Positions 23,993-60,337 of a stretch of 64,000 nucleotides of DNA are shown one piece after another. The position numbers were made by a program, and so were the translations under genes. Below the pieces are notes generated by a model. That model made no database searches, was not told the DNA's origin, and was given only the letters and a program-made list of their open reading frames with translations. Location of the stretch: contig JACQXK010000009.1 in the NCBI GenBank assembly GCA_016208765.1, positions 20,819 through 84,818 of the forward strand, read 5' to 3'. This stretch comes from Candidatus Omnitrophota bacterium (lineage in GTDB: Bacteria > Omnitrophota > Gorgyraeia > Gygaellales > Profunditerraquicolaceae). Every line of letters starts with the position of its first letter. Position 1 is the first letter of the stretch.

Positions 23993-24510
23993 TGGAATAC
24001 GTTTATTTTATTTCCAGCCTGCCAATGCTGCAGTTTGATGCAAAGCCGCCATTTTCTTTTGAAAATTTCTTGATAAAAGCAGCAGGGTTTGTTTCCGCTA
24101 AAGAGCTTGAAATTTTACGCGGGCTTTGTGATGAAAATATTTCTTCTGTGAAGCTTTCGTTAATTGAGCGCTGGCAGAGTTTTGATACATCGTTAAGGAA
24201 TGAACTGGTAAAATTAAGGGCGGCAAGAAAAAAAGTTGACCCGCATAAATATCTGCGACCCGACGGTGTTATTAGCAGTGTTTTGGCGCATGTAGTCTCC
24301 AGCGCCCAAAGAAGCCATTCCCCTTTAGAAGGAGAGAAAATTTTAGACAGGGAAAAGTGGAATTTTTTGGATGAATTAAGTTTTGGGCATTATTTTGATT
24401 TTGAGGTTTTGGTTATTTACGGGTACAGGCTTTTGATTTTGGAACGCTGGGAAAAGATCAGGCAACAGGATGCAGGAAAAAATATAGAAGGCTTATTAAT
24501 AAGTAATTAA
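23992..24510 (+). CDS. hypothetical protein conserved in chlamydia/spirochaete-type V-ATPase operons
   Basis: 172-aa ORF between atpE and atpA, start overlapping the atpE stop. Chlamydial V-ATPase operons carry a hypothetical gene at this position. Confidence 0.45.
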   Translation: MEYVYFISSLPMLQFDAKPPFSFENFLIKAAGFVSAKELEILRGLCDENISSVKLSLIERWQSFDTSLRNELVKLRAARKKVDPHKYLRPDGVISSVLAHVVSSAQRSHSPLEGEKILDREKWNFLDELSFGHYFDFEVLVIYGYRLLILERWEKIRQQDAGKNIEGLLISN

Positions 24511-24521
24511 GCGGGGTTGTT

Positions 24522-26276
24522 ATGAGCGAAAAAAGATTTGGTTTTGTTACAAGAATTAACAGCAATATAGTAGCCGTTAGTTTTGACAGTTTTGTTGTTC
24601 AAAATGAAGTAGCGTATATTTCAACCGGAAGCCAGCGTTTGAAAGCAGAAGTGATCCGCGTGCGCGGTAAGAGCGCTGAGATGCAAGTGTATGAAAACAC
24701 ATCAGGCTTAAAAGTTGGTGACAAGGTTGAATTTACAGAAGAATTACTGTCTGTAGAACTTGGGCCGGGCCTTTTGGGCCAGATTTTTGACGGCCTGCAG
24801 AATCCCTTGCCTCAGTTAGCCAAGGAGTGCGGATTTTTTCTTAAAAGAGGAGTTTATCTTAAGGCCTTGCCGGACGAATCTGTCTGGGAATTTTTTCCGC
24901 TTGTTAAACCCGGGGATAAAATCAGGGCAGGTGAAAGGCTTGGTTTTGTCCACGAGAAGATCTTTAAACATTATATTTTTGCGCCTTTTAATTTAAGCGG
25001 ATCCTGGGAAGTCGTAAATATTTCTCCAAAAGGTAATTATAATTTGAAACAACCCGTCGCACGTCTTAAAAATAGCGACGCAGAAGAGATAGACGCTTTC
25101 TTGTGCCAGAATTGGCCGGTAAAGATACCCATACAGGCATATTCGGAAAAAATAAAACCAAAAGAACCATTGGTTACAAAAATGCGCCTGATAGATTCTT
25201 TGTTTCCGGTTGCCCGAGGAGGGACTTATTGCATACCCGGGCCGTTTGGCGCAGGAAAAACAGTTTTACAGCAGTTAACCAGCCGGCATGCCGAAGTGGA
25301 TGTGGTGATCATTGCTGCCTGCGGGGAACGCGCCGGAGAAGTTGTTGAAACTTTAAGGACTTTTCCTGAATTAATGGATCCGCGTTCAAATAAACCTTTG
25401 ATTGACCGTACAATTATTATTTGTAATACAAGTTCAATGCCGGTTGCAGCAAGAGAGTCCAGCGTTTATACGGCAGTGACCCTGGCAGAATATTATCGCC
25501 AGATGGGTTTGCACGTTTTATTATTGGCAGATTCCACCTCCCGTTGGGCGCAGGCAATGCGCGAGATGTCCGGAAGATTAGAGGAGATCCCCGGAGAAGA
25601 AGCGTTTCCTGCATATCTTGAGTCGCGCATAGCTGCATTTTACGAGCGCGCCGGGTTAGTGAGGCTTTATGATAATAGCATAGGGTCGGTAACTATCGGC
25701 GGCGCAGTGAGCCCTGCCGGAGGAAATTTTGAAGAGCCTGTAACACAGGCAACGCTTAAAGTTGTGGGGGCGTTCCATGGCCTCTCGCGCGAGCGTTCTG
25801 ATGCGCGCAGGTATCCGGCCATTGACCCGTTAATCAGCTGGAGCAAATATAAAAGTTTTGTTGAAGAAAAGATCATGCGTAAAGGCCATGAGATTTTACA
25901 TAAGAGTAACGGGATCCTGCAGATGATGAAAGTTATCGGTGAAGAAGGCATTTCTTTGCTTGATTATGTTGAATATTTAAAGGGAGAGTTTTTTGATTTT
26001 GTGTATCTGCAGCAGAATGCATTTGATTTAGTTGATGAATCTACTCCTGCCGAGCGCCAGCAGTATGTGTTTGGTTTTATCCATGCAATCCTTGATTCGG
26101 ATTTTTCTTTTAAGGATAAGCCGGATGCCCTGCATTTCTTTCAGCAGTTACGCCAGTTGTTCCGCGGCTGGAATTCAACTGCCTGGCAGTCAGAAGAATT
26201 TTATAAAACCGAGGCAGAAATCAATACCGCCTTAAAAGAAAAACAAATTAAGCAAAAGGAAAAAACGCATGCATAA
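24522..26276 (+). CDS. atpA: V-type ATP synthase catalytic subunit A
   Basis: P-loop GPFGAGKTV and an A-subunit non-homologous insert region; 584 aa. Confidence 0.9.
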
Positions 26277-27570
26277 AGTCTACACGAGCATTATTCAAAT
26301 TGCCGGAGATGTGATTACCGTAGAAGCAGATGGAATAGGCTATTTGGAGATTGCCGAGATTTCTTCCCGCAGGGGTAAATCATTGGCGCAGGTAATCCGT
26401 ATTGACGAGAAAAAGGTTTCCCTGCAGGTATTTGCCGGCAGTAAAGGTGTTTCAACCGGGGACAAGGTAAGGTTTCTTGGGCATGCCATGCGTGTTTCAA
26501 GCGGAGAAAACTTGCTTGGCCGCATTTTTAATGGAAGCGGAGTTCCTTTGGATCGCGGCCCTGAATTAACCCAAGACATGATTGAGATTGCAGGCCCGCC
26601 GGTGAATCCTGCAAAAAGAATTATCCCGCATAAAATGATCCGTACCGGTATCCCGATGATTGATGTTTTTAATTCTCTGGTGGAGTCGCAGAAGCTGCCT
26701 ATTTTTTCTATTGCCGGCGAGCCGTATAATGAGCTGATGGCCAGGATCGCTATTCAGGCAGAAGTGGATATTATTATTTTAGGAGGCATGGGGCTAAAAT
26801 ATGACGACTACCTGTTTTTTAGGGATACGCTTGAGGAGCAGGGGGCGCTTTCGCGTTCAATCCTGTTTATTCATACTGCAAGCGATCCGGTAGTGGAATG
26901 TTTGTTGGTGCCGGATATCAGCTTGGCAGTGGCCGAGCAATTCGCCTTACAAGGAAAAAGAGTCTTGGTCTTGTTGACTGATATGACCAATTTTTGCGAC
27001 GCGTTAAAAGAAATTTCTATTACGATGGAGCAAGTGCCTTCAAACCGCGGTTATCCCGGTGATCTTTACAGTCAACTTGCTGCTCGGTATGAAAAAGCTG
27101 TTGATTTTGAGGGTGCAGGTTCAATTACTATTTTAGCCGCCACCACCATGCCCGGGGATGATGTTACCCATCCTGTGCCGGACAATACCGGTTATATTAC
27201 CGAGGGGCAGTTTTATTTAAAAAATGGAGTAATTGAACCGTTTGGTTCCCTGAGCCGTTTAAAACAGCAGGTGAACGGAAAAACACGCGATGACCACCGC
27301 ACGATTATGGATACTATGATCCAGCTTTTTGCCAGTTATCGGCAGTCAGTAGAAAAACAGGCAATGGGTTTTCAGATGAGCGAATGGGATAAAAAGCTTT
27401 TGCGTTACGGTGTGTTGTTTGAAGAAAAAATCATGTCTTTAAAAGTAAATATTGCGCTTGAAAAGGCCCTGGATTTAGGCTGGCAGATCTTGGCAGAGTG
27501 TTTTAGCCCTGAAGAAACCGGCATAAAAAAATCTATGATAGAAAAATACTGGCCGCAAAACCGGCAGTAA
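26269..27570 (+). CDS. atpB: V-type ATP synthase subunit B
   Basis: 433 aa with a degenerate P-loop region and conserved B-subunit blocks ([20 protein letters not shown]). Confidence 0.9.
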
Positions 27571-27576
27571 TTTTGT

Positions 27577-28191
27577 ATGGCAAAAATCAAATTAACTAAG
27601 GGAGAATTAAAGCGCCAGCGTGATGCCTTGGCGCAATACCAGAGGTATCTTCCCACATTGCAATTAAAAAAACAGCAGCTGCAGTTGGAGATTCTACAGC
27701 AGGATAATTTGCTTATTGACAGAGAAAGCTCGTTAGCCAAGAAAAAAGAACAAGCCAAAGTTTGGGCAGGGCTTTTATCAGGCCCTGTGGATGTGAGGCC
27801 ATGGATTAAGCCGGCGCGCATTATATCCGGAACAAAAAATGTAGCCGGAGTTGATATGGCTATTTTTGAAAGAGTTGAGTTTGCCGCAGCAGAATGTGAT
27901 TTGTTTATTACTCCTTTGTGGGTTGATTTTGCGATTGAAGCTCTGCATAGTTTAGTGAGTTTAAAAAACGAGATCATGCTTATAAAAGAAGGGATAGCTG
28001 TTTTAAAACACGAGTTGCGCATTACAACCCAAAGGGTCAATCTTTTTGAAAAAGTAAAAATCCCTGAAACCGAAGAAGCAATTCGTTTAATCAAGGTTTA
28101 TATCGGTGACCAGATGGCAAATGCCGTCGGAAGAAGTAAGATTGCCAAAAGAAAAATAGAAGAAGCTGTTTTTGCAGGAGCCCTAGCATGA
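27577..28191 (+). CDS. atpD: V-type ATPase subunit D
   Basis: 204-aa coiled-coil protein (KLTKGELKRQRDALAQYQRYLPTL) in operon position after B. Confidence 0.8.
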   Translation: MAKIKLTKGELKRQRDALAQYQRYLPTLQLKKQQLQLEILQQDNLLIDRESSLAKKKEQAKVWAGLLSGPVDVRPWIKPARIISGTKNVAGVDMAIFERVEFAAAECDLFITPLWVDFAIEALHSLVSLKNEIMLIKEGIAVLKHELRITTQRVNLFEKVKIPETEEAIRLIKVYIGDQMANAVGRSKIAKRKIEEAVFAGALA

Positions 28192-29963
28192 TTATAGCAA
28201 TGAAAAAAGTTGCAGTGATTATGCAGGCAAAAGATTCTGCGCAGGCGCTAAAGGCGCTGCGGTCTTTTGGAGCGGTGCATGTAGAAAATCAGCAACCGCC
28301 AAAAAGTGCTAATCTAAACAACCTGCTGGATGATTATGCGTTAGTCCAACAGGGGCTTGAAGTTTTTTCTGAGGAAGAATTTATTGAGCACTGTCATGGG
28401 GATTTAAGGCACAAAGAAACTCCTGATTGGAAATTAACCTGTCGCCATGCACTGGATCTCTGGAAGCGCATTGATCATCTGGAAGGCTACTCTTTTATTT
28501 TAAACCGAGATATCAAGGAATGGGAAAAGTGGGGAGATTTTGACCCGCAGATAGCAGGCCAGCTATTAAAAAAGAATATCTTCTGCAGTTTATATAAGAT
28601 CCCGTTGAAAGATTTGGCAGGTTTGTCAGGCGGCTATGTAATAAAAAAAATTTATCTTGAGGAAAATATTGCATACTGCGCAGTTATTTCGCGCACAAAA
28701 CCGGAGCTTAATTTTAAAGAGATTGAATTGCCGAAGATAAGCCTGTCTACAATGAAAGACAAGCTTGCTGAGAATAAATTGACAATAGACAGGCTAAGGC
28801 AGGAATTGCATCAGCAGCTTTGTTTTCGCGGCTCATTTGTGAGGGCCGAGGTTCAAATAGAAAAAGAAATTGAATTTGAAAATGCCTTAAGCGGTATGGC
28901 GCAGGAAACTGAACTGTCTTATTTGGTGGGCTTTGCTCCCCGGGAGTGCGAGACACAATTATTGGATTTGGCCAAAAAAGAAAAGTGGGGGATTTTGATC
29001 ACTGATCCGTCTGATGAAGATAATGTGCCGGTTGCAATTCGTAACCCGAAGTGGATTGCCTTAATTAGCCCGGTATTTAAGCTTTTAGAGATCCTTCCCG
29101 GATACCGTGAACTGGATATCAGTTTGTGGTTTTTGTTGTTTTTTGGGATTTTCTTCGGGATGCTGATCGGGGATGCTGGTTATGGTTTAACTTACTTTTT
29201 GCTTACTCTTTTTGTTCATGCTAAATTCGGGAAGAAAGTAAAAGATAAGTCGCCCTTTTTTCTCTTTTACCTTTTAAGTTTCTGCGCTATTATATGGGGG
29301 CTATTAACCGGTGTGTTTTTCGGGCAGGAGTGGCTGCAGAAGATTGGATGGAAGCCGCTTGTACCCGCCTTAAATGATGCAAGGATAATCCAGAGTTTTT
29401 GTTTCTTGCTCGGGGCGGTGCATCTTTCTATTGCTCATATCTGGAAAATAATTTTAAAGATCCCCTCTTTGTCGGCCTTGGCTGAATTGGGGTGGGTAGG
29501 TATTTTGTGGGGCGCTTTTTTTCTTGCACGTTTTCTAATACTTGGGTACGAATTTCCTTTCTTTGGAAAATGGCTAATTTTCGGCGGGATAAGCCTTGTC
29601 ATTCTTTTTACGCAGCCGCAGAAAAATATCCTTAAAGCAATCGGTTCCGGGTGCGGTACGCTTGCCTTGAATCTGATGAATAATTTTACCGACGTGGTTT
29701 CGTATGTGCGCCTTTTTGCCGTTGGTTTGGCCGGGGTTGCAATCGCGAATACTTTTAACAGTATGGCAGCAGGCATACGCGGCGAGAGCATCCTGGGGTT
29801 AATATTGGCAATAGTTGTTGTTTTGTCTGGGCATTTGTTAAACATTGTTTTGGGATTAATGTCGGTGCTGGTGCACGGTGTAAGGCTTAATGTCCTGGAA
29901 TTTTGTTCTCATGTGGGAATTAGCTGGAGCGGCACAGCCTACAAACCATTTAAGGAAAATTAA
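28188..29963 (+). CDS. atpI: V-type ATPase subunit I (a-subunit)
   Basis: 591 aa with a soluble N-terminal half and a polytopic C-terminal half containing the conserved Arg region (VSYVRLFAVGLAG). Confidence 0.8.
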   Translation: MIIAMKKVAVIMQAKDSAQALKALRSFGAVHVENQQPPKSANLNNLLDDYALVQQGLEVFSEEEFIEHCHGDLRHKETPDWKLTCRHALDLWKRIDHLEGYSFILNRDIKEWEKWGDFDPQIAGQLLKKNIFCSLYKIPLKDLAGLSGGYVIKKIYLEENIAYCAVISRTKPELNFKEIELPKISLSTMKDKLAENKLTIDRLRQELHQQLCFRGSFVRAEVQIEKEIEFENALSGMAQETELSYLVGFAPRECETQLLDLAKKEKWGILITDPSDEDNVPVAIRNPKWIALISPVFKLLEILPGYRELDISLWFLLFFGIFFGMLIGDAGYGLTYFLLTLFVHAKFGKKVKDKSPFFLFYLLSFCAIIWGLLTGVFFGQEWLQKIGWKPLVPALNDARIIQSFCFLLGAVHLSIAHIWKIILKIPSLSALAELGWVGILWGAFFLARFLILGYEFPFFGKWLIFGGISLVILFTQPQKNILKAIGSGCGTLALNLMNNFTDVVSYVRLFAVGLAGVAIANTFNSMAAGIRGESILGLILAIVVVLSGHLLNIVLGLMSVLVHGVRLNVLEFCSHVGISWSGTAYKPFKEN

Positions 29964-29979
29964 TAACATAGGAGAGAAT

Positions 29980-30429
29980 ATGGAAACAGGAGTAATTACG
30001 CAGTTTAAAGATTTGGGCTTGATTATGGTGCTTGCGCTATCTGCTGTTGGTTCTGCGGCTGGGGCTGGTGTGGCAGGAATGGCTGCAATAGGCGCATGGA
30101 AGAAGAACTTTTCGCAAAACAAGGCTGCTTCTTTTATGTTAGTGGCTTTTGTAGGCGCTCCGCTAACTCAGACAGTTTATGGCATGATCATTATGAATAA
30201 AATGATTGAGCTTGCTAACAAAGGGCAGTACCTTTGGGGTATGGGCATCTTCGCAGGTCTTGCCATAGGCATGTCTGCGTATTGGCAGGGAAAATGCGCT
30301 GCCAGCGCTTGTGATGCCATGGGAGAAACAAATAAAGGTTTTGGTAATTATATTGTGGTTTTAGGGATCATAGAGACTGTTGCTTTGTTCGTGATGGCAT
30401 TTACATTAGGGCTATTGGGAAAGCTATAA
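29980..30429 (+). CDS. atpK: V-type ATPase proteolipid subunit K
   Basis: Hydrophobic glycine/alanine-rich c-ring protein. ATG at 29980 is preceded by an AGGAGAG RBS; the longer 29890 ORF would overlap atpI. Confidence 0.75.
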   Translation: METGVITQFKDLGLIMVLALSAVGSAAGAGVAGMAAIGAWKKNFSQNKAASFMLVAFVGAPLTQTVYGMIIMNKMIELANKGQYLWGMGIFAGLAIGMSAYWQGKCAASACDAMGETNKGFGNYIVVLGIIETVALFVMAFTLGLLGKL

Positions 30430-44889: not shown

Positions 44890-45795
44890 TTAAACAGGCA
44901 ATACCAGTAATAATACCGCAGTTTCAAAAAATACCACTCCTAAAATAAACCACTTTAAATTTACGATTGATTTTTGCTGCGCAGGGGATGTTATAAAAAT
45001 AATTGCCTGATAAAAGAGTGTTATTCCTGAGCTAATCAGTAGCATTAAGGCAGGCGGGTTGATTTTAGCAATAGCGTTAACCTGCGAAAAATACAAGAAA
45101 GAAGAAAAAGGAGCGCTTAAGAGCAGCAAGCCGACCACGCTTGCTTTTTTGGCACCAAGAGCAACTACAAATGTTCTTATCCCTGCCAATTTATCTCCCG
45201 CGTAATCTTTAAAATCTGAGTAGAAACAAAGCAGGAAATTAATCTGCCAGATTAAAATTGCCATTGCCGCAAGCCTTGGGTCAAGAAAGATTGCAAATGT
45301 ATTTTTTGGGTTGGCGCAAAGCCCGGCATAATACACGCATGGGGCAAGAAGCAGCCCAAAAATAATATTTCCTAAAAGGGGCAAATGCTTTTTTTGTTGG
45401 TAGGCGATATTCAAAAGGAAAATGAAGATATAAATTAAGCATGCCCGCGGGTTAAGAAAAAATGTAATTATTAATCCGAATATAAATAGCCACATGCTAA
45501 GCCAAATAGCAAACTTTAAATTAAGCATGCCGGTAATTAGGGGCCTTCTGGGCGCATTGTGTGTATCTTCTTTTTGCCCCAAACAGTCATTGACTACCTG
45601 ATTTACACCCCAGCCAAAGAATAAAATAACCAAGATAATTATTGTCCTGGCGGTATTTACCGGCCAGAAATTTACCACCCCAATTAAGCCTACTATTACT
45701 GAAATAGGCGCTGCATAAAGGCGCATAGAGCTTAAATATGCCAGAATATTCTTTATAATTTCTCTTTTCATCTTAAGAACCCATTTTGCCTCCAC
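44890..45795 (-). CDS. UbiA-family prenyltransferase (membrane)
   Basis: Polytopic protein with the Asp-rich motifs NDxxDxxxD (NQVVNDCLGQKEDT) and YSDFKDYAGD. Last gene of the minus-strand lipid operon. Confidence 0.65.
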   Translation of the reverse strand: MEAKWVLKMKREIIKNILAYLSSMRLYAAPISVIVGLIGVVNFWPVNTARTIIILVILFFGWGVNQVVNDCLGQKEDTHNAPRRPLITGMLNLKFAIWLSMWLFIFGLIITFFLNPRACLIYIFIFLLNIAYQQKKHLPLLGNIIFGLLLAPCVYYAGLCANPKNTFAIFLDPRLAAMAILIWQINFLLCFYSDFKDYAGDKLAGIRTFVVALGAKKASVVGLLLLSAPFSSFLYFSQVNAIAKINPPALMLLISSGITLFYQAIIFITSPAQQKSIVNLKWFILGVVFFETAVLLLVLPV

Positions 45796-46799
45796 CAGCG
45801 AACAGTTTTTTGCACGGCGTGATAAACTGGTGTTTGGGGAGCAAGGTTTAATAATTGTTGCGCTTTGGTGTTGTTATAGACATTATTGCAATAATATATT
45901 TTAACCCTGGCGCGGTTTAAAAAAGGAGATTTATTAATTTTGAGCGCTTTGTATAAAAATTCCAGAAAAATACCAACAGGCATAAAGAAAATCTCTGGTA
46001 ACGAATAAGGCAGCTTTAGCTTTAAGGCAGAACAAAAGCTGCCAAGGAATTCTTTCAGAATTAAAGGTTTATTATCTGCTATGATAAAAATATTTGTTCC
46101 TTTGGGCATTTTCTCTGCAAGACTTGCCATATTTTTGGCCAAATCTTCCACATATACTAAATGGAATAATTTATTGCCGTTAAAGGGCATAATAGCATAT
46201 CCTTCCTGCACTGCTTTTGAGAAGATGTATGGCCCTGCGTGAAATTCTCTTGGCCCATATACCCAGGGGGCACGGATAATAGTCAGGTTGACTGCTTTAT
46301 CGCGGCAGAAATTTGTTGCTTCAGTTTCAGCCAGCGTTTTGCTTATTCTATAATAATTCATATTAGATTCAAGCAGAAAAGAGAGTGGATAGCTTTGTCT
46401 GGGGTTATAAGGGCTGAGCTCATCTTTAGGGGACAGTTGGTCTTCCTCGCCTAATACGGCGCAGCTGCTTAAAAGGATGAAATTATTTATGCCGTTATTA
46501 AAACCAGCCTTTAGAATATTTTCTGTTCCCTCAACATTGGTTTTAAAGAAATCTGATTTCCTGCCCCAGTCAGAGGCAAGCGCAGCTGTGTGATAAATAA
46601 TATCAAATCCTGAAGTTATTTTTTTAACCTGCGCATAGTCGCGGATGTCAGCATGGCAAATTTTTATTTTCTTTAAAGGTAAAAATTTAAGCGGACTTGT
46701 TTTTCGGCAGCAAACAGTAACATCGTGTTTTAGTTTGACTAATTGCTTTACAATATGGCTTCCAATAAAACCTGTCCCGCCGGTAACAAGGATTTTCAT
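45768..46799 (-). CDS. NAD-dependent epimerase/dehydratase (extended SDR)
   Basis: N-terminal TGGTGFIGSH Rossmann motif and a YxxxK catalytic region (YRISK). Confidence 0.8.
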   Translation of the reverse strand: MKILVTGGTGFIGSHIVKQLVKLKHDVTVCCRKTSPLKFLPLKKIKICHADIRDYAQVKKITSGFDIIYHTAALASDWGRKSDFFKTNVEGTENILKAGFNNGINNFILLSSCAVLGEEDQLSPKDELSPYNPRQSYPLSFLLESNMNYYRISKTLAETEATNFCRDKAVNLTIIRAPWVYGPREFHAGPYIFSKAVQEGYAIMPFNGNKLFHLVYVEDLAKNMASLAEKMPKGTNIFIIADNKPLILKEFLGSFCSALKLKLPYSLPEIFFMPVGIFLEFLYKALKINKSPFLNRARVKIYYCNNVYNNTKAQQLLNLAPQTPVYHAVQKTVRWWRQNGFLR

Positions 46800-47785
46800 T
46801 TTGTAATTACTTCCAATGCTTTATGCATAACTGAAATTTCCGCTGGCAGTATCCCCATTGCATCCCCATCAAATTCCACTTGTGGATGTTCAGGGCAATA
46901 GCTGATGTTGACATTATTTGCGTAAGTAATGCGCGCGCCGTTATATTTAAGAAAATTTCCAAAATAAAGCTTGGGTATATTTATGAAAAGCTCAATCCAG
47001 GACGCAGGGGCTATTTGTAAACAATATAATTTTCCGTCATCAGGAGAGATTTTGTTAAATACCCGCATTCCTGAGGCAAGATAAGGGTCTTTGCCAACAG
47101 TAAAATTAATCAGGTTTTTTAATTCGGTTTTTGTCCCGTCAATATCAACTTGTAAGTTAAACTTTTTAAATCCGCAAAGTGAGGTTAAAAGCGCAAGAAA
47201 TGTGCCGCAGGCATCTCCAAGATATTTGCGGTAACGCGAATTAGCTTTGAAAGCTATTCTTGGCCCTAAGCCAATATTGACATTACTTGCAAAATAGGAA
47301 GTTACTTGTTTAACTGCATTTGGCTCAAAGCTCTGATAAGTAATCTTACCGATGTCAATTAACCTCGTTTTTCCTTGTGTAAGCGTATGAATTGCCGCAG
47401 GGATTTGTATCGGGATATTATGGTATTTATTAAAATCTGGGCTGGTCCCGATATGAATAACTCCCAATTTTGGCATGTTGGATGTGGTGTTAGCTAAAAA
47501 TAATCCCGTGATAACCTCGGCAATTGTCCCGTCTCCGCCAACTGCGACTACAATAGGGTAGTTTTCTTTTTTGGCAGTTTGCGAAAACACGATTGCCTCT
47601 TTTGGTTTTTGAGTAAGGGCATAATCAAATTTAATTTTTAATTCCTGTAATTTATTGATAATAATTTTATATTCTTTTTTTGCCCTGCCCGAGCAGGCTG
47701 TGGGGTTAATAATCAGGAAATACTCTTTATCGCGGATATTCATTTCTGATTTTCTTAAAGATTGTAACGCTTTTTTTGATGTCAT
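46796..47785 (-). CDS. DAGK_cat-family lipid kinase (diacylglycerol/sphingoid-base kinase-like)
   Basis: LIINPTACSG and VVAVGGDGTIAEV motifs of the DAGK catalytic domain. The start may be at the internal Met (MNIRDKEYFLIINP), which would remove the overlap with the upstream gene. Confidence 0.7.
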   Translation of the reverse strand: MTSKKALQSLRKSEMNIRDKEYFLIINPTACSGRAKKEYKIIINKLQELKIKFDYALTQKPKEAIVFSQTAKKENYPIVVAVGGDGTIAEVITGLFLANTTSNMPKLGVIHIGTSPDFNKYHNIPIQIPAAIHTLTQGKTRLIDIGKITYQSFEPNAVKQVTSYFASNVNIGLGPRIAFKANSRYRKYLGDACGTFLALLTSLCGFKKFNLQVDIDGTKTELKNLINFTVGKDPYLASGMRVFNKISPDDGKLYCLQIAPASWIELFINIPKLYFGNFLKYNGARITYANNVNISYCPEHPQVEFDGDAMGILPAEISVMHKALEVITK

Positions 47786-49178
47786 TATTGTTTAAATAAG
47801 TAGATACTGATAATCTGATCCGTGGAGAATCATGCGGGACGCTTGGCGGGACAAACGGGATAGCATAAATTTTGTTTGAAAAAAGCAGTTTTGAAAACCT
47901 TAGAGTAGAATAAGTGTCAGGAAACAAAATAGAGAAAAGCGGAGCCTGCGATGGCGTGAGTTTATAATTCATATTTTGTAAGGCAGCGTACAATGTATTT
48001 TTCAAATTAAATATTCTCCTGCGTGCTTTTGCGGATTTTCTTATTAAATCCAGCGAAGCTGTTGTTGCTGCGGCAATATGCGCAGGAAGCGCAGTAGAGT
48101 ATAAATACTGGCTGGAATTATAACGCAAATATTCAATAATTTTATTCTTGCCGGCGATAAATCCTCCGAAAGTCCCGCAGGCCTTGCCAAGCGAACCGGT
48201 GATAAGCATGATATCATTAAACCCGCGGTAATATTCAAGGATTCCTCTTCCGGATTTTCCTAAAACTCCGATCCCGTGGGAGTCATCAACAATAATTCCT
48301 GCCTTATAGGTTTTACCGAGCGCAATAATTTTATCAAGATCAGCAATTGTCCCGTCTGTGCTGTAAAGCCCTTCAATGACAATAAAACGCATACGCAAAT
48401 TTTGAGAATCTTTCAGTATTTTCTCCAAATTTGCCATGTCGTTATGGGCAAAAAAAATCAGTTTCGCTTTAGAAAGCAGGCAACTGTTAATTAAGGAGGA
48501 GTGAATATCTTTATCTGCAATAATAATGTCGGTTTCTTTTGCAAACGCCTGAAATATACCAAGATTTGCCTGATATCCTGACGGATAAACTATCGCGGCA
48601 TCTTGTCTGAGAAAAGATGCAAGTTTTTTCTCAAGACTAAGGTTTAAATCAGTTGAACCCAGGACAATCGGGGTCGCGCACATACTTAATCCATATTTCT
48701 TGATTGCTTTAATGGCTGCGGATTTGAGTGTTTTATTTTGTGACAGGCCTAAGTAATCATTGCTGCCGAAATTAAACATCTCTTTGTTGTTAATCTTTAT
48801 TTTTTTGGATAATCCGCTATTTATTGGTTGGTAGTAAGGATTAAATTTTAATTTCTCAAACACAACTTTATCAACAAAAAGGCTGTCAGAGAATTCTGCT
48901 CGCTGGTTTTTAGCAGAGGGCTCATTGTTCAAGGCTGGTTTCTGCGCATCTAAGTAGTTTATTAAATCAACTACACTAACGGCAGGATGAAACATTTTTT
49001 CATCTATGTTGATGCCAAATGCCTGCTCAATGTTGTAGATTAATTCTATGCCGCTAAAGGAGTCAATGCCTAAATCAGCGAGCAGCTTGGAATCAGGGTG
49101 AATTTTGCTGGTATTTTTTTCTTTTCCTGCCCCGGCAAGTAATTCTTTAAGTTGTGTTATCAGGTTTTTTGTCATCAA
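47727..49178 (-). CDS. acyl-carrier-protein domain fused to an alpha-oxoamine synthase (AONS/KBL/serine-palmitoyltransferase family, PLP-dependent)
   Basis: N-terminal PP-binding motif LGIDSFSGIEL, then a class-II aminotransferase fold with the PLP-lysine motif GSLGKACG and the DDSHGIGVLG / IIADKDIHSS blocks typical of Bio-F/SPT-type enzymes. Confidence 0.75.
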   Translation of the reverse strand: MMTKNLITQLKELLAGAGKEKNTSKIHPDSKLLADLGIDSFSGIELIYNIEQAFGINIDEKMFHPAVSVVDLINYLDAQKPALNNEPSAKNQRAEFSDSLFVDKVVFEKLKFNPYYQPINSGLSKKIKINNKEMFNFGSNDYLGLSQNKTLKSAAIKAIKKYGLSMCATPIVLGSTDLNLSLEKKLASFLRQDAAIVYPSGYQANLGIFQAFAKETDIIIADKDIHSSLINSCLLSKAKLIFFAHNDMANLEKILKDSQNLRMRFIVIEGLYSTDGTIADLDKIIALGKTYKAGIIVDDSHGIGVLGKSGRGILEYYRGFNDIMLITGSLGKACGTFGGFIAGKNKIIEYLRYNSSQYLYSTALPAHIAAATTASLDLIRKSAKARRRIFNLKNTLYAALQNMNYKLTPSQAPLFSILFPDTYSTLRFSKLLFSNKIYAIPFVPPSVPHDSPRIRLSVSTYLNNNDIKKSVTIFKKIRNEYPR

Positions 49179-50441
49179 CTAATTATCACACATTTTACCA
49201 AGCACTACAACAGCGTTATTGCCGCCGAAGCCAAAAGCGTTTACCATGCCAAAACTGATATTTTTTTCTTGCGCTTTGTTAGGCGTGTAGTTTAGATCGC
49301 AGGCCGGATCAGCCTGCAAAAGATTAATTGTAGGAGGGATGATGCTGTGTTTTATGGAAAGGCAGGTAGAAATCAGGCCGATAGCTCCTGAAGCTGCGAT
49401 AGTATGCCCGATCATAGATTTGGTAGAACTGATAGAGAGCTGTTTAGAATGTTTTCCGAATACATTTTTTATTGCCATGGTTTCTACACGGTCATTTGCT
49501 TTTGTTGAGGTGCCGTGTGCATTAATATAGTCAATTTTTTGAGCAGATAACTTGGCTTGATCAAGCGCTAGCTGCATTGCTTTGGCAATATCTCTTCCGC
49601 GAGGTTGGGGCATAACCATATGATAAGCGCTGCTGTTGGAGCCAAAGCCAAGGATCTCCGCGTAAATAACAGCGTTTCTTTTGCGCGCAGACTTTAATGT
49701 TTCCATAACAACAATGCCGGCGCCCTCTCCTAAAACAAAACCGTCTCTGTTTAGAGCAAACGGGCAGGAGGCTTCCTGCGGCAGGCAGTTTCTTTGTGAC
49801 ATTACTCTAAGTGAGTCAAAGGCGCTGAAGGTTGCATAACTAAATGGCGCCTCAACTCCTCCGGCAAGCACAGCCTCTGCTCTTTTTGATTTAATTAGAT
49901 CAAACGCCAATCCGATTGCCTGCAGGCCGGAAGAGCAGGCAGTGGAAATAGTTAAATTTGGGCCGGTTGTTTTTAGCAGGATAGAGATTTGCGCGCTGAC
50001 GCTATTAGGCATTACTTTAGGCACAGTAATTGGAAGCGGCCTTTTGTTTCTTTCTTTTAAGATCTGCTCAATGATATCTTCATGAAAGATGATTCCTCCC
50101 AATCCTGAACCGATGCAAATTCCCGTTTTTTCAGGGTTTTCCCATTTACCGTAAATTCCGGCTTCGGCCTTTGCCATTTTTGCCGCAGTTACTCCAAATT
50201 GCGCAAAACGATCTAGCTGATTTAGAATAGAACTATTAATGTATTTTTGTGGAAGAAAACCTTTTACCTCTGCGCCGATTTTTGTTTTAAAGTTAGATGT
50301 GTCAAAACAGGTTATGTTTTCTACGCCGGAGATTCCTCTAAGATTTGCCTTCCAGAAAGAATCTTTACCAATCCCGTTTGGCGCAATTATTCCCAAACCG
50401 GTAATTACCACTCTTGTTTCTTGATTAGTTTTTTGTTTCAT
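49179..50441 (-). CDS. beta-ketoacyl-ACP synthase (KAS I/II, FabF/FabB-like)
   Basis: Active-site Cys (ISTACSSGL), His-His (NAHGTST, GHTIAASG) and a C-terminal GFGGNNAVV. Confidence 0.85.
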   Translation of the reverse strand: MKQKTNQETRVVITGLGIIAPNGIGKDSFWKANLRGISGVENITCFDTSNFKTKIGAEVKGFLPQKYINSSILNQLDRFAQFGVTAAKMAKAEAGIYGKWENPEKTGICIGSGLGGIIFHEDIIEQILKERNKRPLPITVPKVMPNSVSAQISILLKTTGPNLTISTACSSGLQAIGLAFDLIKSKRAEAVLAGGVEAPFSYATFSAFDSLRVMSQRNCLPQEASCPFALNRDGFVLGEGAGIVVMETLKSARKRNAVIYAEILGFGSNSSAYHMVMPQPRGRDIAKAMQLALDQAKLSAQKIDYINAHGTSTKANDRVETMAIKNVFGKHSKQLSISSTKSMIGHTIAASGAIGLISTCLSIKHSIIPPTINLLQADPACDLNYTPNKAQEKNISFGMVNAFGFGGNNAVVVLGKMCDN

Positions 50442-50448
50442 GGTTTGT

Positions 50449-51951
50449 TTAAGAATAAACGCGCAGAAAATTCAGCCAGATAAACAGGCAGATGAGTGTT
50501 AAAAGATATACAGAAAAAACATTTTCGTATTTCGGCGGTTTTTGATTGATGAGAAAGAATTGAATTATTCCTAGTATTGCGCAGGGGATAATAAGTAGCG
50601 GCTCTAAGAAAAGAAATGCCAGCAGGCAGTAGCTAATAAGATAAAATAAGCTGACAAAGATTTTAAGCCACGGCTTAGATTCTATTTCTGTAATATTTAA
50701 ACATCCGGTGAAAAAGACCAGAATATAAAATGAAAAAATATGAGGAAAGCTTAGAATTTCTCCTCCGGAAAAAAGCCAGCCTAACATTACTAATAAGATA
50801 ATATTAAAACAAAGCACTGTTTTGGATAAAATTGGTACGCGGCAAAGTTTTAGCGGCGGGAGAAAATAAATAAAGATGCTTGTTATTGATAGGGCAAAGA
50901 AGAAAAAGGTGGTGAAATTTACTGTAATTGATGAAGCTAGGGCCATGCCAAAGAATAAGGCAATTGCTGTTTTTTTGCCTGCCTGAGGAGGATTAATAAA
51001 AAGTGAGTAAATTGCAAACCCAAGCCAAATCGTGGCTAAAATTAACAGAAATCCTACAAGATTAGAAAATATTATTTTTGCTGCTCCCGCTTGATAAATA
51101 GACATTCCAATAAGAAATAAAAATATAAGCTGGGCTATGGTTTTAATTTTGATTTGCTTAGTGAGCATTTTGAAATATCCGCTTTTTCCAAGGGCAAGAA
51201 GGGTCAATATTTCAATAAAAATAAAGAGCGCCAGAAAACGGATTATTGTAATGATAGAGATCCCGTCCTGGCAGCTTGAGCAGGTGAATTTGGCTAATAA
51301 CGGAATAATGGAGGCTGCTAAAAGCGCAAAATATATTGCTATTGCTCCAAAGAGAGTCTTTACAAGGCTTTTTGTCTTAGTTAGAAAATATAAAACCGAT
51401 AAAATCACTGATAGTAGCGCAGTAATTGTTTCTCCGGGTGTGATGTTTGCCGAGAAGAAAAAGAGATTATACAACTTTGTAGGATGAACGTAGCGGATGT
51501 CAATGCCTTTACCTTTTGAAATTATCAGGTCAATGATCGGGGCAAAAATCCCTATTGCACAAACGAGGCTTAGCGCAGAGCGCAGCGATTTTTGAATTAT
51601 ATCTCCGGTAATTAAGGTAAAAATAATAGAAAATAATAATACAGAAGCTATCCAGAAAAGTGTATAGTGGAAAAATGATATCCCGATACTGACACTGCTC
51701 ATTAACAGGTTTGGATCAGAAGCAGAAAATATAGAGAACGGGACCATTGCTGTATCTGAAAATATTTCCAAGAAATTGCGCAGATTGATTATGCCAAGAA
51801 AACTTAAGATATAATAAGTAAGCGGGATATTTTCATCTTGGCTGAAAGAGGTGATTTTCTCTAAGAAGTGTGGAATTTTCATGGGATTAACAAAATTATC
51901 GCGGCAAAACAGATGATTGTCAAGCCATCTTTTGTAATAAGTCCGTGACAA
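50449..51951 (-). CDS. large polytopic membrane protein of unknown function (first gene of the lipid operon)
   Basis: 500 aa with >12 predicted TM helices and no recognisable motif; 8-nt gap to the KAS gene. Confidence 0.5.
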   Translation of the reverse strand: MSRTYYKRWLDNHLFCRDNFVNPMKIPHFLEKITSFSQDENIPLTYYILSFLGIINLRNFLEIFSDTAMVPFSIFSASDPNLLMSSVSIGISFFHYTLFWIASVLLFSIIFTLITGDIIQKSLRSALSLVCAIGIFAPIIDLIISKGKGIDIRYVHPTKLYNLFFFSANITPGETITALLSVILSVLYFLTKTKSLVKTLFGAIAIYFALLAASIIPLLAKFTCSSCQDGISIITIIRFLALFIFIEILTLLALGKSGYFKMLTKQIKIKTIAQLIFLFLIGMSIYQAGAAKIIFSNLVGFLLILATIWLGFAIYSLFINPPQAGKKTAIALFFGMALASSITVNFTTFFFFALSITSIFIYFLPPLKLCRVPILSKTVLCFNIILLVMLGWLFSGGEILSFPHIFSFYILVFFTGCLNITEIESKPWLKIFVSLFYLISYCLLAFLFLEPLLIIPCAILGIIQFFLINQKPPKYENVFSVYLLTLICLFIWLNFLRVYS

Positions 51952-56414: not shown

Positions 56415-56942
56415 ATGATAAAACATTCTTATTTAAGTAAAAAAGTAAAAGTTCGCTCCTCCGGGATCAACCGTCGGGGAGTATTTGCTGTGGCTGGGCT
56501 TAAGAAAGGCGAAGCAATCGCGGTTTGGGGCGGATACATTATTACTCAAAAAGAATTTAAAGTTTTGTCCAAGAAGCGATTTAAGAATATAGATGACTAT
56601 GCCACAAAAGTCTGCGACGGGTTCTACATGGTTTCCTGCAAAAACGGTACTTTGGAAGATGACGATTTCTTTAACCATAGCTGTAATCCAAATGCAGGGA
56701 TAAACGGGCAGATTGTAATGGTTGCTATGCGCAATATTCTCCGGGGAGAAGAAATCACCTACGATTACGCAATGACTGACGCAGAGTTTGATTATAGCTT
56801 TAAGTGCTCCTGCGGGCAAAAGAATTGCCGTAAAATTGTTACTACCAAAGATTGGAAAATTCCTTCTTTGCAGAAAAGATATAAAGGACACTTTTCCTGG
56901 TATATCCAGGAAAAGATCAACAAATTAAGCCTCAGGCATTAA
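56415..56942 (+). CDS. SET-domain protein (putative protein-lysine methyltransferase)
   Basis: Classic SET motifs FFNHSCNPN and GEEITYDY plus a Cys-rich post-SET (CSCGQKNCR). Confidence 0.7.
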   Translation: MIKHSYLSKKVKVRSSGINRRGVFAVAGLKKGEAIAVWGGYIITQKEFKVLSKKRFKNIDDYATKVCDGFYMVSCKNGTLEDDDFFNHSCNPNAGINGQIVMVAMRNILRGEEITYDYAMTDAEFDYSFKCSCGQKNCRKIVTTKDWKIPSLQKRYKGHFSWYIQEKINKLSLRH

Positions 56943-57415: not shown

Positions 57416-60337
57416 ATGCATAGAAGAACCTCAAAAATCTTAGCTATAATTTTGTCGTTTATCTTAATCTTCCAACAGTCTGGCTTTGCCCAGATTGCTG
57501 CTCAACTGGATATTGCTGGGTATTTTATCTCTCTTCAGAACGGTGTAGCCCAAGATAGATTCCGTCCTTTGCATTTACGGTATCTTCACTACAGCCCCGA
57601 AGAGAATAACTTCAGGCTCCTTTTAGACAAGGGCAATATTAAGGACCTAAAAGACCCCAACGTAGAGCAGGCCACCAAAGAGCTGTTGAATTACTTCTTT
57701 ATAGGCGTTACTCTCCCTAATGATTCCTTCTGGGTAAACCTAAGACCAGACTCCCCAGATAACATCATTGATCCGTGGCTTGCCCAGACCGACGTAGGTC
57801 GTATCCTTCTTGAAGCAGACCTGCAACTAAAGAAAGACACCGCCCTTTATACCTCGCCCCAAACCCCCGAAGGTAGGGAATACTGGGATAAACTCTATAG
57901 GAAAGCAGGAGAACTCTTCGGGTTGGATAATGTAACTATTCCTACACTTACTCGCCCTTGGATAGTGCCAGATGAAATCATCGTCCGAGAAACCCAAGAC
58001 AACGCCTATATCTATAAAGCCACCCTTAAAGTAATGCTGGAGCAGGACTACCTCAAGGACCCAAGCACCCATAACTTCAATGACCAACGCTCCAAACAAC
58101 TCAATGAATATTCCTCACAACTTATCCGAGACCGTATCATCCCCAAACTCGCCAAGGAAGTAAATACCTCTAAGCGTTATGCTCCTTTAAGGCAGGTTTA
58201 CTATTCTTTAATCCTCGCTCAATGGTTTAAGCAACAGTTTGCTGGCAAGAATACCACTTACTCTTCGCTCATTGACCGTAGAAACCTTGCTGGTCTTACC
58301 TCCCAACAAACCTGGTCTAAGACTACTTACTTTCAAGAATACCAAAAATCCTTTAAGGATGGCGAATATAATATCAAAGAGCAAATCTATACGCCCTCTG
58401 GTCAGACAATAAGAAGTTACTTTTCAGGGGGGATTGCCGTAACTACAAAAACGATTACTGCTGCTAAAGTATCCTCACCCGCAGGTGAGCCACTGGTAGT
58501 CCCAAATTATACGAAGGAAGTTTTAGCGTCTGGCACACCAGAGAGGCTTGACATAAGATTAGAAAGTAAGCAGCCACCTGATGGTAGAGCCAGCGAACTT
58601 TTTGCCAAAGATGAAAAACCATATTTCGTTATAGTAAACAAAAAAGATTACTTTGGCAAATTTACTGAAACTGCTGTTAATGTTTTGATGGCATTAAAGG
58701 AGGCAATTGAAATACCTAGTGATAAGCGAGCAAGTAGAATATCATTAATAGTTAAGAAATACGGGTTTAATGAACAATTGAGTAGCCATTTTAGTGAGGG
58801 TGTGAAGGGAACATCTATGAGAGGGGGCGATTCTTCACAGGAGGGATTTTCTTTTGAAGCAGTAAGGTCTGTATGTTCTATTCTTACTTATTATTATCCA
58901 GAGTTTGCCGATATAAGAGCTGAATATGATGTTATTAGTGAAATTGCTTTAGCTAGTGGAATGCCGATAAACAAGGAATTAAAAAATAGACTACAGAAAG
59001 TTATGGAATACTTGGAAATAGTATTGTCTGGAAAGGAAGACCCAGGCACCGTATATGACAAGCTTCAGAATGAACTGACAGAAGATAATACTTATACGGT
59101 TATTTTGCTCCTAAAATGGTGTGGCAATGTTGCAGAACTAGACAACTATCCAAATGAACAGCAAAAAGCAAGAGTATTTCTGAAATATTTTACCGGAAGG
59201 TATCTCAATGAGTATAAAGATGTATTAGATGCTTTTGCAGATTTTGTTTTTGGTAAAGTCGCGACTGCTCAAAGCAGGGTTTCTCATTTTGGGGGAGATG
59301 AGAGCGTTAAGGTAGCTATAATGCTGACAGGAGCACAGCAATTGGGGAATTGGTTAAAGGCAAAAGCACAAGCTTCAGGAAAGAAAATTGTTTTTAAGGA
59401 ATTACTATTGACAATGGCAATGGTAAATTCTCTTGAGTATTTTGTAGATACGGATACAGTATTTTTAACGCAACAATCAGAAGAGTTTATGCGTAGATAT
59501 TTGTCAGAAAGCGGTATATTAACAAGCGAAACCAAACACGTAGTTTTTGTTGACACTGGCTTTAAGGGGTCACTAAACCAATTCATGCATAGAGACCTTA
59601 GAGATAGAAACATTGGAGAAGACTTTCTATTGTTAGGTCAGTTTGCTTCATCTTTCCAAGAATATCTTGCCTCTGGATTAAATAAACAAAGCGGTTGGCA
59701 GGGTGATGAAAAAAGACTACGTAGATTCATCTTTGTTATGGATGATGGCTTTGAGGCATCTACGACTTCCGCAGTGCGATTCCACGATGGAATACAAGTT
59801 ACTGTTGCTTCTACGCCTCGTCCTTGGTTTTGCGCGTTAGTAAAAAACGAGATAGAAAAATTAGCAGGAGTAATGCCAGAGAGACCTGCTACTGATTTGC
59901 CACAAACCAATTCTGATTCTCAAGCATCTTCTGTTGTTGGTGGTATTGATTTCCGTAACCTACCTATCGTTACGCAGGCAATAACTAACTTAAAATTAAG
60001 CTCCTCTTCGGCTATGTCTATGGTTAAGCTACAAGATATTAACCTTAATCAGGAGTTAGGGGATATCCAAAAGACGGTAGAAGCCGGAATTGTCCCCTCT
60101 ACAGATAGAATCAAGGAGTATGTTGCCAGATCTTGCCTTAAAGGAAATTTAGACGCCCAGAAAGTCGTCTCTTGCATTGCCAATATGCTAAGGCTAGAAG
60201 AAGAACATTGCGTTTCAACCGACCCAATGTTACGAGATATCTTAGTTGTGCTTGAGTCAAACAGGTCTCTGGAAAGTCTTAGGGCTATTTTTGTGGATGC
60301 TAAGCCAGAAAAACAACAAACATTTCTTCTACCTTAA
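57416..60337 (+). CDS. large secreted protein of unknown function (973 aa)
   Basis: N-terminal signal peptide, no recognised motifs. The first ~400 codons favour C-ending codons (AAG, GAC, CCC, ACC); the remainder is AT-rich like the host genes. Confidence 0.5.
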   Translation: MHRRTSKILAIILSFILIFQQSGFAQIAAQLDIAGYFISLQNGVAQDRFRPLHLRYLHYSPEENNFRLLLDKGNIKDLKDPNVEQATKELLNYFFIGVTLPNDSFWVNLRPDSPDNIIDPWLAQTDVGRILLEADLQLKKDTALYTSPQTPEGREYWDKLYRKAGELFGLDNVTIPTLTRPWIVPDEIIVRETQDNAYIYKATLKVMLEQDYLKDPSTHNFNDQRSKQLNEYSSQLIRDRIIPKLAKEVNTSKRYAPLRQVYYSLILAQWFKQQFAGKNTTYSSLIDRRNLAGLTSQQTWSKTTYFQEYQKSFKDGEYNIKEQIYTPSGQTIRSYFSGGIAVTTKTITAAKVSSPAGEPLVVPNYTKEVLASGTPERLDIRLESKQPPDGRASELFAKDEKPYFVIVNKKDYFGKFTETAVNVLMALKEAIEIPSDKRASRISLIVKKYGFNEQLSSHFSEGVKGTSMRGGDSSQEGFSFEAVRSVCSILTYYYPEFADIRAEYDVISEIALASGMPINKELKNRLQKVMEYLEIVLSGKEDPGTVYDKLQNELTEDNTYTVILLLKWCGNVAELDNYPNEQQKARVFLKYFTGRYLNEYKDVLDAFADFVFGKVATAQSRVSHFGGDESVKVAIMLTGAQQLGNWLKAKAQASGKKIVFKELLLTMAMVNSLEYFVDTDTVFLTQQSEEFMRRYLSESGILTSETKHVVFVDTGFKGSLNQFMHRDLRDRNIGEDFLLLGQFASSFQEYLASGLNKQSGWQGDEKRLRRFIFVMDDGFEASTTSAVRFHDGIQVTVASTPRPWFCALVKNEIEKLAGVMPERPATDLPQTNSDSQASSVVGGIDFRNLPIVTQAITNLKLSSSSAMSMVKLQDINLNQELGDIQKTVEAGIVPSTDRIKEYVARSCLKGNLDAQKVVSCIANMLRLEEEHCVSTDPMLRDILVVLESNRSLESLRAIFVDAKPEKQQTFLLP

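Follow-up and report, generated by a model that had tools for sequence, protein, structure and literature searches.

The six-gene operon

We analysed a 64,000-nucleotide stretch of DNA (the window in what follows) from a Candidatus Omnitrophota bacterium, corresponding to positions 20,819 to 84,818 of contig JACQXK010000009.1 (assembly GCA_016208765.1), and in it a block of six genes organised around a fusion of an acyl carrier protein (ACP) with a pyridoxal 5′-phosphate (PLP)-dependent alpha-oxoamine synthase (AONS). The initial annotation had described tightly packed minus-strand genes with recognisable domains; the coordinates of the open reading frames (ORFs), together with Pfam and NCBIfam, confirm all six, at exactly 44890-51951. 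This is the sole minus-strand block within a plus-strand region, the genes between positions 1 and 44678 being nearly all on the plus strand. The features are as follows.

51895..51923, minus strand: candidate site resembling a promoter (TTGACA-17-GATAAT, 11 of 12 consensus positions matched), 13 nt ahead of the likely start of MEM500
50449..51951, minus strand: MEM500, best regarded as an N-terminally extended, decayed UbiA-family membrane protein; ORF of 500 aa, likely start at 51882 giving 477 aa (database protein P0139)
49179..50441, minus strand: FabF-like beta-ketoacyl-ACP synthase II (KAS), an optional accessory, 420 aa
47727..49178, minus strand: ACP::AONS fusion (PP-binding and Aminotran_1_2), 483 aa
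roughly 48924-49178, minus strand: ACP domain of the fusion, residues about 1-85
47727 to roughly 48881, minus strand: PLP-dependent AONS domain of the fusion, residues about 100-483
46796..47785, minus strand: soluble lipid kinase of the DgkB/YegS family; ORF of 329 aa, likely start at Met15 (47743)
45768..46799, minus strand: extended short-chain dehydrogenase/reductase (SDR) of the NAD-dependent epimerase / 3-beta-hydroxysteroid dehydrogenase type, putative 3-keto reductase, 343 aa
44890..45795, minus strand: UbiA_S, a small prenyltransferase resembling digeranylgeranylglyceryl phosphate synthase (DGGGPS), with an altered motif 1; ORF of 301 aa, likely start at 45771 giving 293 aa (database protein P0121)

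To judge how the genes are packed, we combined these coordinates with the start sites of the database proteins that match them (P0001, P0121 and P0139). The SDR/UbiA and kinase/SDR junctions are ATGA overlaps, the AONS and kinase genes overlap by 17-59 nt, and gaps of 3 and 7 nt separate KAS from AONS and MEM500 from KAS, respectively. By ordinary criteria the block is an operon. Its fusion protein is 100% identical to P0001, encoded on a 220-kb contig. The GC content across the operon is 0.36-0.41, somewhat lower than the value of about 0.43 found elsewhere. Promoter-like matches in the region were not more numerous than in shuffled sequence, and the terminator scan had the same outcome.

A cassette shared by bacteria and archaea

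Loci were gathered from contigs encoding homologues of the fusion protein, and from a scan in which each species was represented by one genome and an alignment of 22 fusion proteins served as query; the same scan with a single fusion protein as query had given nothing. All cassette proteins were mapped onto 24 loci. A synteny check of this kind had been recommended in the initial annotation, and the arrangement does recur, not as the same six-gene set throughout, but as the core order (ACP-)AONS, kinase, extended SDR, usually a radical S-adenosylmethionine (rSAM)/SPASM enzyme of about 430 aa, and a UbiA protein of about 300 aa. The kinase gene immediately follows AONS in 23 of the 24 loci, and UbiA accompanies the cassette in every complete locus. 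KAS accompanies 6 cassettes (L003-L005 and L009-L011), lying directly ahead of ACP::AONS; L001, L002, L012 and the archaeal loci have none. The six genes, first taken as a unit, are therefore not the conserved one: KAS and the 500-aa protein are optional, and most versions carry an rSAM enzyme. An rSAM homologue and a second KAS were searched for in the window, and neither is present.

Fusions also link the parts of the cassette: ACP::AONS in the window, SDR::rSAM in L089 and UbiA::rSAM in P0194 and P0198. The window holds a reduced form of a wider cassette, most carriers of which add an rSAM enzyme tied to SDR and UbiA, and kinase, SDR and UbiA are evolutionarily locked to AONS. Chance could not plausibly have produced this gene order in 24 independent loci, bacterial and archaeal.

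The core is carried by Omnitrophota, by unclassified bacteria (including one with a 3.36-Mb contig), and by archaea: Woesearchaeota and Nanoarchaeota (DPANN), and Thermoplasmatota. On the L008 contig the cassette stands alongside eRF1, a thermosome gene and archaeal-type ribosomal genes, so that its archaeal assignment does not rest on binning alone. This spread over both domains was not visible from the window sequence alone. Full-text searches of the literature brought up no account of the cassette, and Spt-like proteins were reported to be missing from the archaeal metagenome-assembled genomes of the Black Sea in a survey of 2024 (PMC11334938).

Several individual loci deserve mention. Three DPANN AONS genes carry a fused ACP domain with a conserved Asp-Ser site (L008 9001-9270, L014 198-440 and L006 9001-9255), and neither KAS nor a phosphopantetheinyl transferase (PPTase) gene was found near these three. 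Such carrier proteins are an unusual feature for archaea. The rSAM-less cassette of other Omnitrophota (L001 1-5686 and 13420-19479, L003, L004) always has a giant ORF of 2000-2700 aa on one side and a row of Tad/T2SSF pilus genes on the other; the neighbourhood in the window is different, and the cassette has therefore moved. The 3.36-Mb bacterial contig encodes a second lipid kinase with DAGK_cat and YegS_C domains, just past the downstream end of the cassette (L089 15977-16834). Two loci show apparent decay. In L015 (2367-4376), a split flavoprotein gene of the old yellow enzyme (OYE) type and AONS are followed by unrelated genes. In the Thermoplasmatales locus L018 (11122-13305), rSAM and UbiA each appear as two separate matches, pointing to a frameshift or a misassembly.

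The ACP-fused AONS belongs to a clade of its own

In the fusion protein, Pfam recognises a PP-binding domain at residues 11-76 (30 bits, cut-off 20.8) and an Aminotran_1_2 domain at residues 133-466 (168 bits). The phosphopantetheine (Ppant) site D39-S40 and the PLP residues H226, D298/D299, H301 and K332 were invariant in the alignment of 22 homologues, bearing out the view that the operon is built around this fusion. The Schiff-base lysine, the PLP-stacking histidine and the Asp and His of the DDxH motif are all present, as in members of the AONS superfamily, and the PP-binding domain with its Asp-Ser site is predicted to be a true acyl carrier domain.

Its place within the superfamily is less usual. 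Matches in the PDB, down to E 1e-60, were to 2-amino-3-ketobutyrate CoA ligase (KBL), serine palmitoyltransferase (SPT) and BioF, with KBL, SPT and BioF/KBL structures about equidistant at roughly 204-208 bits. The top two NCBIfam models were bioF (TIGR00858, 333 bits against a cut-off of 426) and KBL (NF005394, 323 against 460), both below threshold; a further KBL model, TIGR01822, gave 268 against 493. The three SPT models were all missed as well (NF047600, 292 against 640; NF047599, 269 against 500; NF047603, 194 against 670), as were the cut-offs of the 5-aminolevulinate synthase (ALAS) and CqsA models.

A neighbour-joining tree (383 columns, 100 bootstraps) was built with six labelled references: E. 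coli BioF and Kbl, Coxiella KBL, a Thermus BioF/KBL enzyme and the SPTs of S. multivorum and S. paucimobilis. ALAS, CqsA, cysteate acyltransferase, PigH and SxtA were left out of it, the first three being more distant by PDB bit scores. The cassette AONS proteins formed their own clade with 100% bootstrap, apart from the BioF, KBL and SPT references, and its deepest branches were archaeal sequences. Identity was at least 42% within the cassette group and at most 34% to the next homologues beyond it; it was 26-32% to the BioF/KBL references and 26-28% to the two SPTs. The clade also has signatures of its own near the active site, G-x-S-M-C-x-T-P (SMCxTP), HSS and YST. Three candidate identities were thus rejected: SPT (below all three cut-offs and outside the SPT clade), BioF (score below cut-off, outside the clade of E. 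coli BioF, no bio genes found in the window) and KBL (scores below cut-off, outside the clade of the E. coli and Coxiella enzymes).

These results bear directly on a role in primary metabolism, in which an ACP-fused BioF would use pimeloyl-ACP made with KAS for biotin synthesis, or a KBL would pair with a threonine dehydrogenase in glycine/threonine metabolism. BioF uses pimeloyl-ACP, SDR-type threonine dehydrogenases exist, and bioF and KBL are the two best-scoring models. Already disfavoured, this explanation is scarcely credible given the missed cut-offs, the fully supported split from the E. coli, Coxiella and Thermus enzymes, and the obligate lipid kinase and UbiA partners, which have no role in either pathway. 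Firm clustering with BioF in a genome otherwise without biotin genes, or co-occurrence of the operon with bioA, bioD and bioB elsewhere, had been named beforehand as grounds for giving up the lipid interpretation; the protein does not cluster with BioF, and the annotation of the window (roughly 56 ORFs scanned) contains neither bioA, bioB or bioD nor tdh.

The initial annotation had also counted the AONS in the SPT family, with a sphingoid base as candidate product, and the placement in that family did not hold. Since the protein lies outside the SPT clade and below the SPT cut-offs, the term sphingoid base, and the use of serine, are for its product an analogy and not a placement. The precedent that had been invoked, a dedicated ACP serving Spt in bacterial sphingolipid synthesis, is indeed in the literature (PMC9386255). 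The pathway of Caulobacter and Rhodobacteria (AasR, AcpR, Spt, bCerS, CerR, CpgB) likewise feeds an AONS-family enzyme from a dedicated ACP; the 3-keto group is the task of an epimerase-type SDR, the 1-phosphate comes from a lipid kinase, and some versions include an acyl-ACP ligase (PMC9386255, PMC11324152). The cassette differs from it in that its AONS stands outside the SPT clade, its ACP is fused, it has no ceramide synthase, its UbiA protein is DGGGPS-like and fixed, an rSAM enzyme usually accompanies it, and it also occurs in archaea.

Could the operon nevertheless make an ordinary bacterial sphingolipid, ceramide or ceramide-phosphate? ACP::AONS would then be Spt, the SDR would be CerR (the reductase of the Caulobacter ceramide scheme) and the kinase a ceramide kinase, with the ceramide synthase encoded elsewhere and UbiA unrelated. 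The parts do match the Caulobacter scheme, with its Spt, dedicated ACP and ceramide kinase CpgB (PMC9386255, PMC11324152), and the 64 kb examined are only part of a contig that is at least 220 kb long. We nevertheless consider this quite unlikely, with an AONS so far below every SPT cut-off. UbiA is moreover present in every complete locus and even fused to the cassette rSAM, which is unexpected for an unrelated neighbour, and no GNAT-type N-acyltransferase was found in any gene neighbourhood with a Pfam listing. In the window itself, neither a GNAT-type or other N-acyltransferase nor a PPTase gene was found among the ORFs scanned, in agreement with the earlier statement that a ceramide synthase is missing.

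A product of the capnine or sulfonolipid type, also entertained at the outset, gained no support. The first step of that pathway resembles the one considered here, as an AONS-family enzyme, cysteate acyl-ACP transferase, turns acyl-ACP into a sphingoid-like base. That pathway, however, has neither kinase nor UbiA, and in the PDB the AONS matches cysteate acyltransferase less closely (141 bits against 208 for the best, KBL/SPT).

UbiA_S resembles DGGGPS and departs from it in motif 1

UbiA_S matches the UbiA family (PF01040, 81 bits), and its top NCBIfam models are those of archaeal prenyltransferases and DGGGPS, all below cut-off (90.5 against 269, 74.4 against 296 and 67.9 against 353). Its sole sequence match in the PDB is the M. 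jannaschii DGGGPS (6m31, E 6e-13), which is also the top Foldseek match (E 1.6e-8) of its AlphaFold2 (AF2) model (pLDDT 88). By profile, by sequence and by predicted fold, the archaeal enzyme is thus the nearest known relative.

Aligned to 6m31, motif 3 of UbiA_S is intact, with DFKDYAGDK facing DFEDMEGDK (D180, D183, D187). Motif 1 reads NDCLGQKED; the residues aligned with Asn62 and Asp70 are unchanged, and Gly occupies the position of Asp66. Throughout the subfamily this position holds Gly or Asn, with Asn in the more distant members. UbiA_S therefore has motif 3 and, in its model, the nine-helix UbiA fold nearest to DGGGPS, and departs from this enzyme in motif 1 and in the scores. In the M. 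jannaschii DGGGPS, Asp66 is essential, and mutations in motif 1 impair binding of the acceptor, geranylgeranylglyceryl phosphate (GGGP), not that of geranylgeranyl diphosphate; the enzyme has two lipid tunnels, and its acceptor is a one-tailed lipid phosphate (PMC9385802). Judged from the alignment, UbiA_S differs from DGGGPS precisely in the acceptor-binding motif. The acceptor that we propose for it below would, like GGGP, be a one-tailed lipid with a terminal phosphate. Archaeal diether synthesis differs from the cassette as a whole, which lacks GGGP synthase and glycerol-1-phosphate dehydrogenase, and whose proposed backbone, assembled from an amino acid and an acyl chain, would receive its phosphate from a kinase instead of deriving from glycerol phosphate.

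The UbiA_S subfamily is small and distinct: among 1.84 billion representative proteins searched with a profile, just 67 matched at E <= 1e-30. The initial annotation had rightly included UbiA in the pathway, as a "perhaps"; this was an understatement, UbiA being a DGGGPS-like core member of the cassette.

UbiA_S also matches, weakly, the model of decaprenyl-phosphate phosphoribosyltransferase (DPPR synthase; 33 bits) and a membrane phosphoribosyltransferase structure (8j8j, Foldseek rank 15). DPPR synthase is a UbiA-family enzyme working with the SDR DprE2. Hence another explanation, in which UbiA_S would, in the manner of DPPR synthase, transfer a sugar phosphate to a lipid monophosphate made by the kinase, with phosphoribosyl pyrophosphate or another diphosphate as donor and the SDR working on the sugar as epimerase or reductase, to give a lipid-linked carrier or a glycolipid. 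The altered motif 1 could reflect such a different donor. We judge this improbable, as DGGGPS-type models and structures match far better (90 against 33 bits, E 1.6e-8 against 8e-4), the SDR is closest to lipid keto-reductases, and neither a glycosyltransferase nor a phosphatase is conserved in the cassette over the 24 loci.

KAS, kinase and SDR, and the extended cassettes

The KAS has both ketoacyl-synt domains, N and C, and legible Cys and His-His active-site motifs, as expected of FabF; it exceeded the cut-off of NF005589 (472.7 against 387) and, with 488.1, fell 5.65 bits short of that of the equivalog TIGR03150 (493.75). A weak match to the PigJ model was also seen. The kinase contains DAGK_cat and YegS_C domains and a legible GGDGT motif, passes the cut-off of the YegS/Rv2252/BmrU (DgkB-type) model TIGR00147 (122.3 against 118.65), and has S. 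aureus DgkB as best PDB match (2qv7, E 4e-20). The SDR matches Epimerase (134 bits) and 3Beta_HSD (94 bits) in Pfam, and its translation shows GxxGxxG and YxxxK motifs. HpnA and the lipid beta-keto reductases OleD/oxyalk_red are its nearest NCBIfam models, all below cut-off. Both enzymes have a lipid character, the kinase being above a lipid-kinase cut-off and nearest to DgkB, and the SDR nearest to lipid keto-reductases.

A sister group of AONS proteins (P0043-P0120), 39-44% identical and likewise reaching no curated cut-off, is encoded in an extended form of the same cassette. This form occurs in two named genomes, Mangrovibacterium lignilyticum (L093 1-11159; GCA_010882175.1) and Desulfosporosinus (L094 6295-15989; GCA_020595055.1), and L013 (6763-15721) has an intermediate form. 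Beyond the core genes, the extended cassettes contain an OYE flavoprotein, a PurM-like (AIRS) enzyme, KAS and a carbamoyltransferase, together with a separate ACP in the named-genome versions and an AMP-binding ligase in one of these. Together, ACP and ligase mirror the AasR/AcpR/Spt arrangement (PMC9386255, PMC11324152). Ring closure is one possible role of the PurM-like enzyme; another is the addition of a second phosphate, by analogy with ThiL.

These tailoring genes raise the question of whether the product is a membrane lipid at all, or a prenylated small molecule such as a signal, a specialised metabolite or a membrane-anchored cofactor. KAS and ACP::AONS would then build a short or beta-keto acyl unit and condense it with an amino acid, perhaps with cyclisation as in the PigJ/PigH step of prodigiosin synthesis; the SDR, the kinase and, elsewhere, the rSAM enzyme would tailor it, and UbiA would add a prenyl anchor. 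PigJ/PigH of the MBC branch of prodigiosin synthesis (a ketosynthase with ACP-ACP-AONS) and the ACP-AONS end of SxtA are comparable cases of an AONS fused to its carrier and served by a ketosynthase, and the adjoining KAS and ACP::AONS genes of the window resemble them. The cassette differs from both by its single ACP, its dispensable FabF-type KAS, and its lipid-type kinase and UbiA. The match of KAS to PigJ, weak as it is, the typical tailoring enzymes of other cassettes (OYE, PurM-like, carbamoyltransferase, rSAM), the small size of the UbiA subfamily and the patchy distribution across phyla would all suit a small molecule. Yet KAS is missing from most cassettes, so that beta-keto extension is not the core chemistry; the kinase comes from a lipid-kinase family, and the enzyme that UbiA resembles most has a lipid acceptor and is no aromatic prenyltransferase. 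The cassette is also retained in DPANN archaea, whose genomes are very small, and sits in the window among housekeeping genes. On balance, a small-molecule product seems to us unlikely, though worth keeping in mind.

A candidate pathway to a two-tailed lipid

Tentatively, and with somewhat less than even confidence, we favour the view that the operon makes a two-tailed, phosphate-headed lipid built on an amino-alcohol backbone instead of glycerol, every enzymatic step being deduced from the gene content. A lipid pathway is supported by the domain content, the tight coupling of the genes and the invariant catalytic and Ppant residues. In this scheme, a fatty acyl chain would ride on the Ppant arm of the fused ACP and be extended by the FabF-like KAS, with help from the cell's own fatty-acid enzymes. 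A long-chain input is suggested because a FabF-like KAS goes with 6 cassettes, and a separate ACP (with one AMP-binding ligase) is found in the named genomes. The AONS domain would condense the acyl-ACP with an amino acid, for which serine is the best guess, into a long-chain 2-amino-3-ketone, and the SDR would reduce the 3-keto group to an alcohol, giving a sphinganine-like base. Phosphorylation of the free hydroxyl by the DgkB-like kinase would yield a base-1-phosphate, laid out like GGGP or lysophosphatidic acid, with one lipid tail, a nucleophile at C2/C3 and a phosphate at C1. With a polyprenyl diphosphate as donor, the DGGGPS-like UbiA would then attach a polyprenyl chain to the amine or to the 3-hydroxyl, as a second tail placed where a ceramide synthase would supply an acyl group. 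The kinase and UbiA steps could run in reverse order. Isoprenoid precursors should be available, as Dxs is encoded 4 kb from the operon.

Several points weigh against this scheme. The Asp66 that Gly replaces in UbiA_S is essential in the M. jannaschii enzyme, so UbiA_S may perform other chemistry or use another donor, and prenylation of an amine has, to our knowledge, no precedent in the UbiA family. With the AONS outside the SPT clade, serine as substrate rests on analogy. The strict pairing of AONS with kinase, and of SDR with rSAM, could mean that the SDR works with the rSAM enzyme and not on the AONS product. The lipid scheme leaves unexplained the role of the rSAM partner as well as the OYE, PurM-like and carbamoyltransferase genes of the extended cassettes. 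An ACP was sought beside the unfused AONS genes, in archaeal and bacterial versions alike, and none was found; archaea mostly lack a fatty-acid synthase. Finally, the carriers of the core cassette are all uncultured.

A broader proposition, possible but on the doubtful side, is that the cassette makes a hitherto unknown class of membrane lipid, in which a sphingoid-type amino-alcohol phosphate derived from a fatty acid bears an archaeal-style isoprenoid chain attached by a DGGGPS relative. This would be a third two-tailed phospholipid backbone beside glycerol and ceramide, combining a "bacterial" and an "archaeal" tail in a single molecule and made by DPANN and Thermoplasmatota archaea and by Omnitrophota and other anaerobic bacteria. 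AONS-initiated lipid pathways are a known type; the novelty lies in the coupling to an archaeal-type prenyltransferase and an rSAM enzyme, in the separate AONS clade, and in the spread over both domains. If the proposed pathway holds, AONS-initiated, sphingolipid-like lipid synthesis would extend into archaea, and a hybrid lipid with one acyl-derived and one isoprenoid chain would bear on the "lipid divide" between bacteria and archaea, as well as on membrane building in symbionts with tiny genomes (DPANN, Omnitrophota). It would also give a function to a generically annotated AONS clade, a UbiA subfamily and an rSAM family, and could point to a new biomarker lipid of anoxic environments. As the extended version occurs in named Mangrovibacterium and Desulfosporosinus, the question may be testable in culture.

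MEM500, a decayed relative of UbiA

MEM500 has no Pfam or NCBIfam match. Other Omnitrophota encode, upstream of the cassette, proteins of roughly 500 aa that share 34-40% identity with it, and Pfam UbiA matches their C-terminal half. In an alignment of 15 sequences, distant relatives retained both Asp-rich motifs, and MEM500 and its 72%-identical relative had deletions at both. The last roughly 280 residues of its AF2 model (pLDDT 80) match UbiA folds only, and weakly (E >= 0.2), and its N-terminal roughly 190 residues gave no structural match. MEM500 thus has the marks of the UbiA superfamily only in part, the fold being weakly matched and both Asp-rich motifs deleted. It is, as first described, a membrane protein; "polytopic membrane protein" is nevertheless too little, and it is best regarded as a decayed, N-terminally extended UbiA paralogue, probably a non-catalytic membrane partner.

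Among the 24 loci, proteins of the MEM500 type are confined to one sub-group of Omnitrophota, the same one whose cassettes lack the rSAM gene. An intact relative, P0148, is not encoded beside the cassette. A further relative, P0153 (783 aa, outside the window), is fused to tetratricopeptide repeats and annotated at source as a UbiA/TadD fusion, which echoes the Tad-pilus neighbourhood of Omnitrophota cassettes.

Surroundings of the operon

The operon is flanked by housekeeping genes, with Dxs, 2-oxoacid:ferredoxin oxidoreductase and GltX on one side and tRNA-Gln, SpeD and SpeE on the other. A search upstream of the operon for a riboswitch or other RNA detected tRNA-Gln alone.

Some features further away in the window, all on the plus strand, were noted in passing. 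An EF-G-like protein of 1027 aa (7234-10317) begins its GTPase domain at residue 338 only, after an N-terminal extension of about 330 aa without Pfam match. Two large ORFs, 57416-60337 (973 aa) and 28188-29963 (591 aa), match no Pfam family at E <= 1e-5, and the second lies inside a row of A/V-type ATPase genes (23992-30429). A membrane methyltransferase of the PEMT/ICMT family, of phospholipid or isoprenylcysteine type, is encoded amid pyrimidine-synthesis genes (19847-20566), and a SET-domain protein of 175 aa, here in a bacterial genome, adjoins tRNA-Leu (56415-56942).

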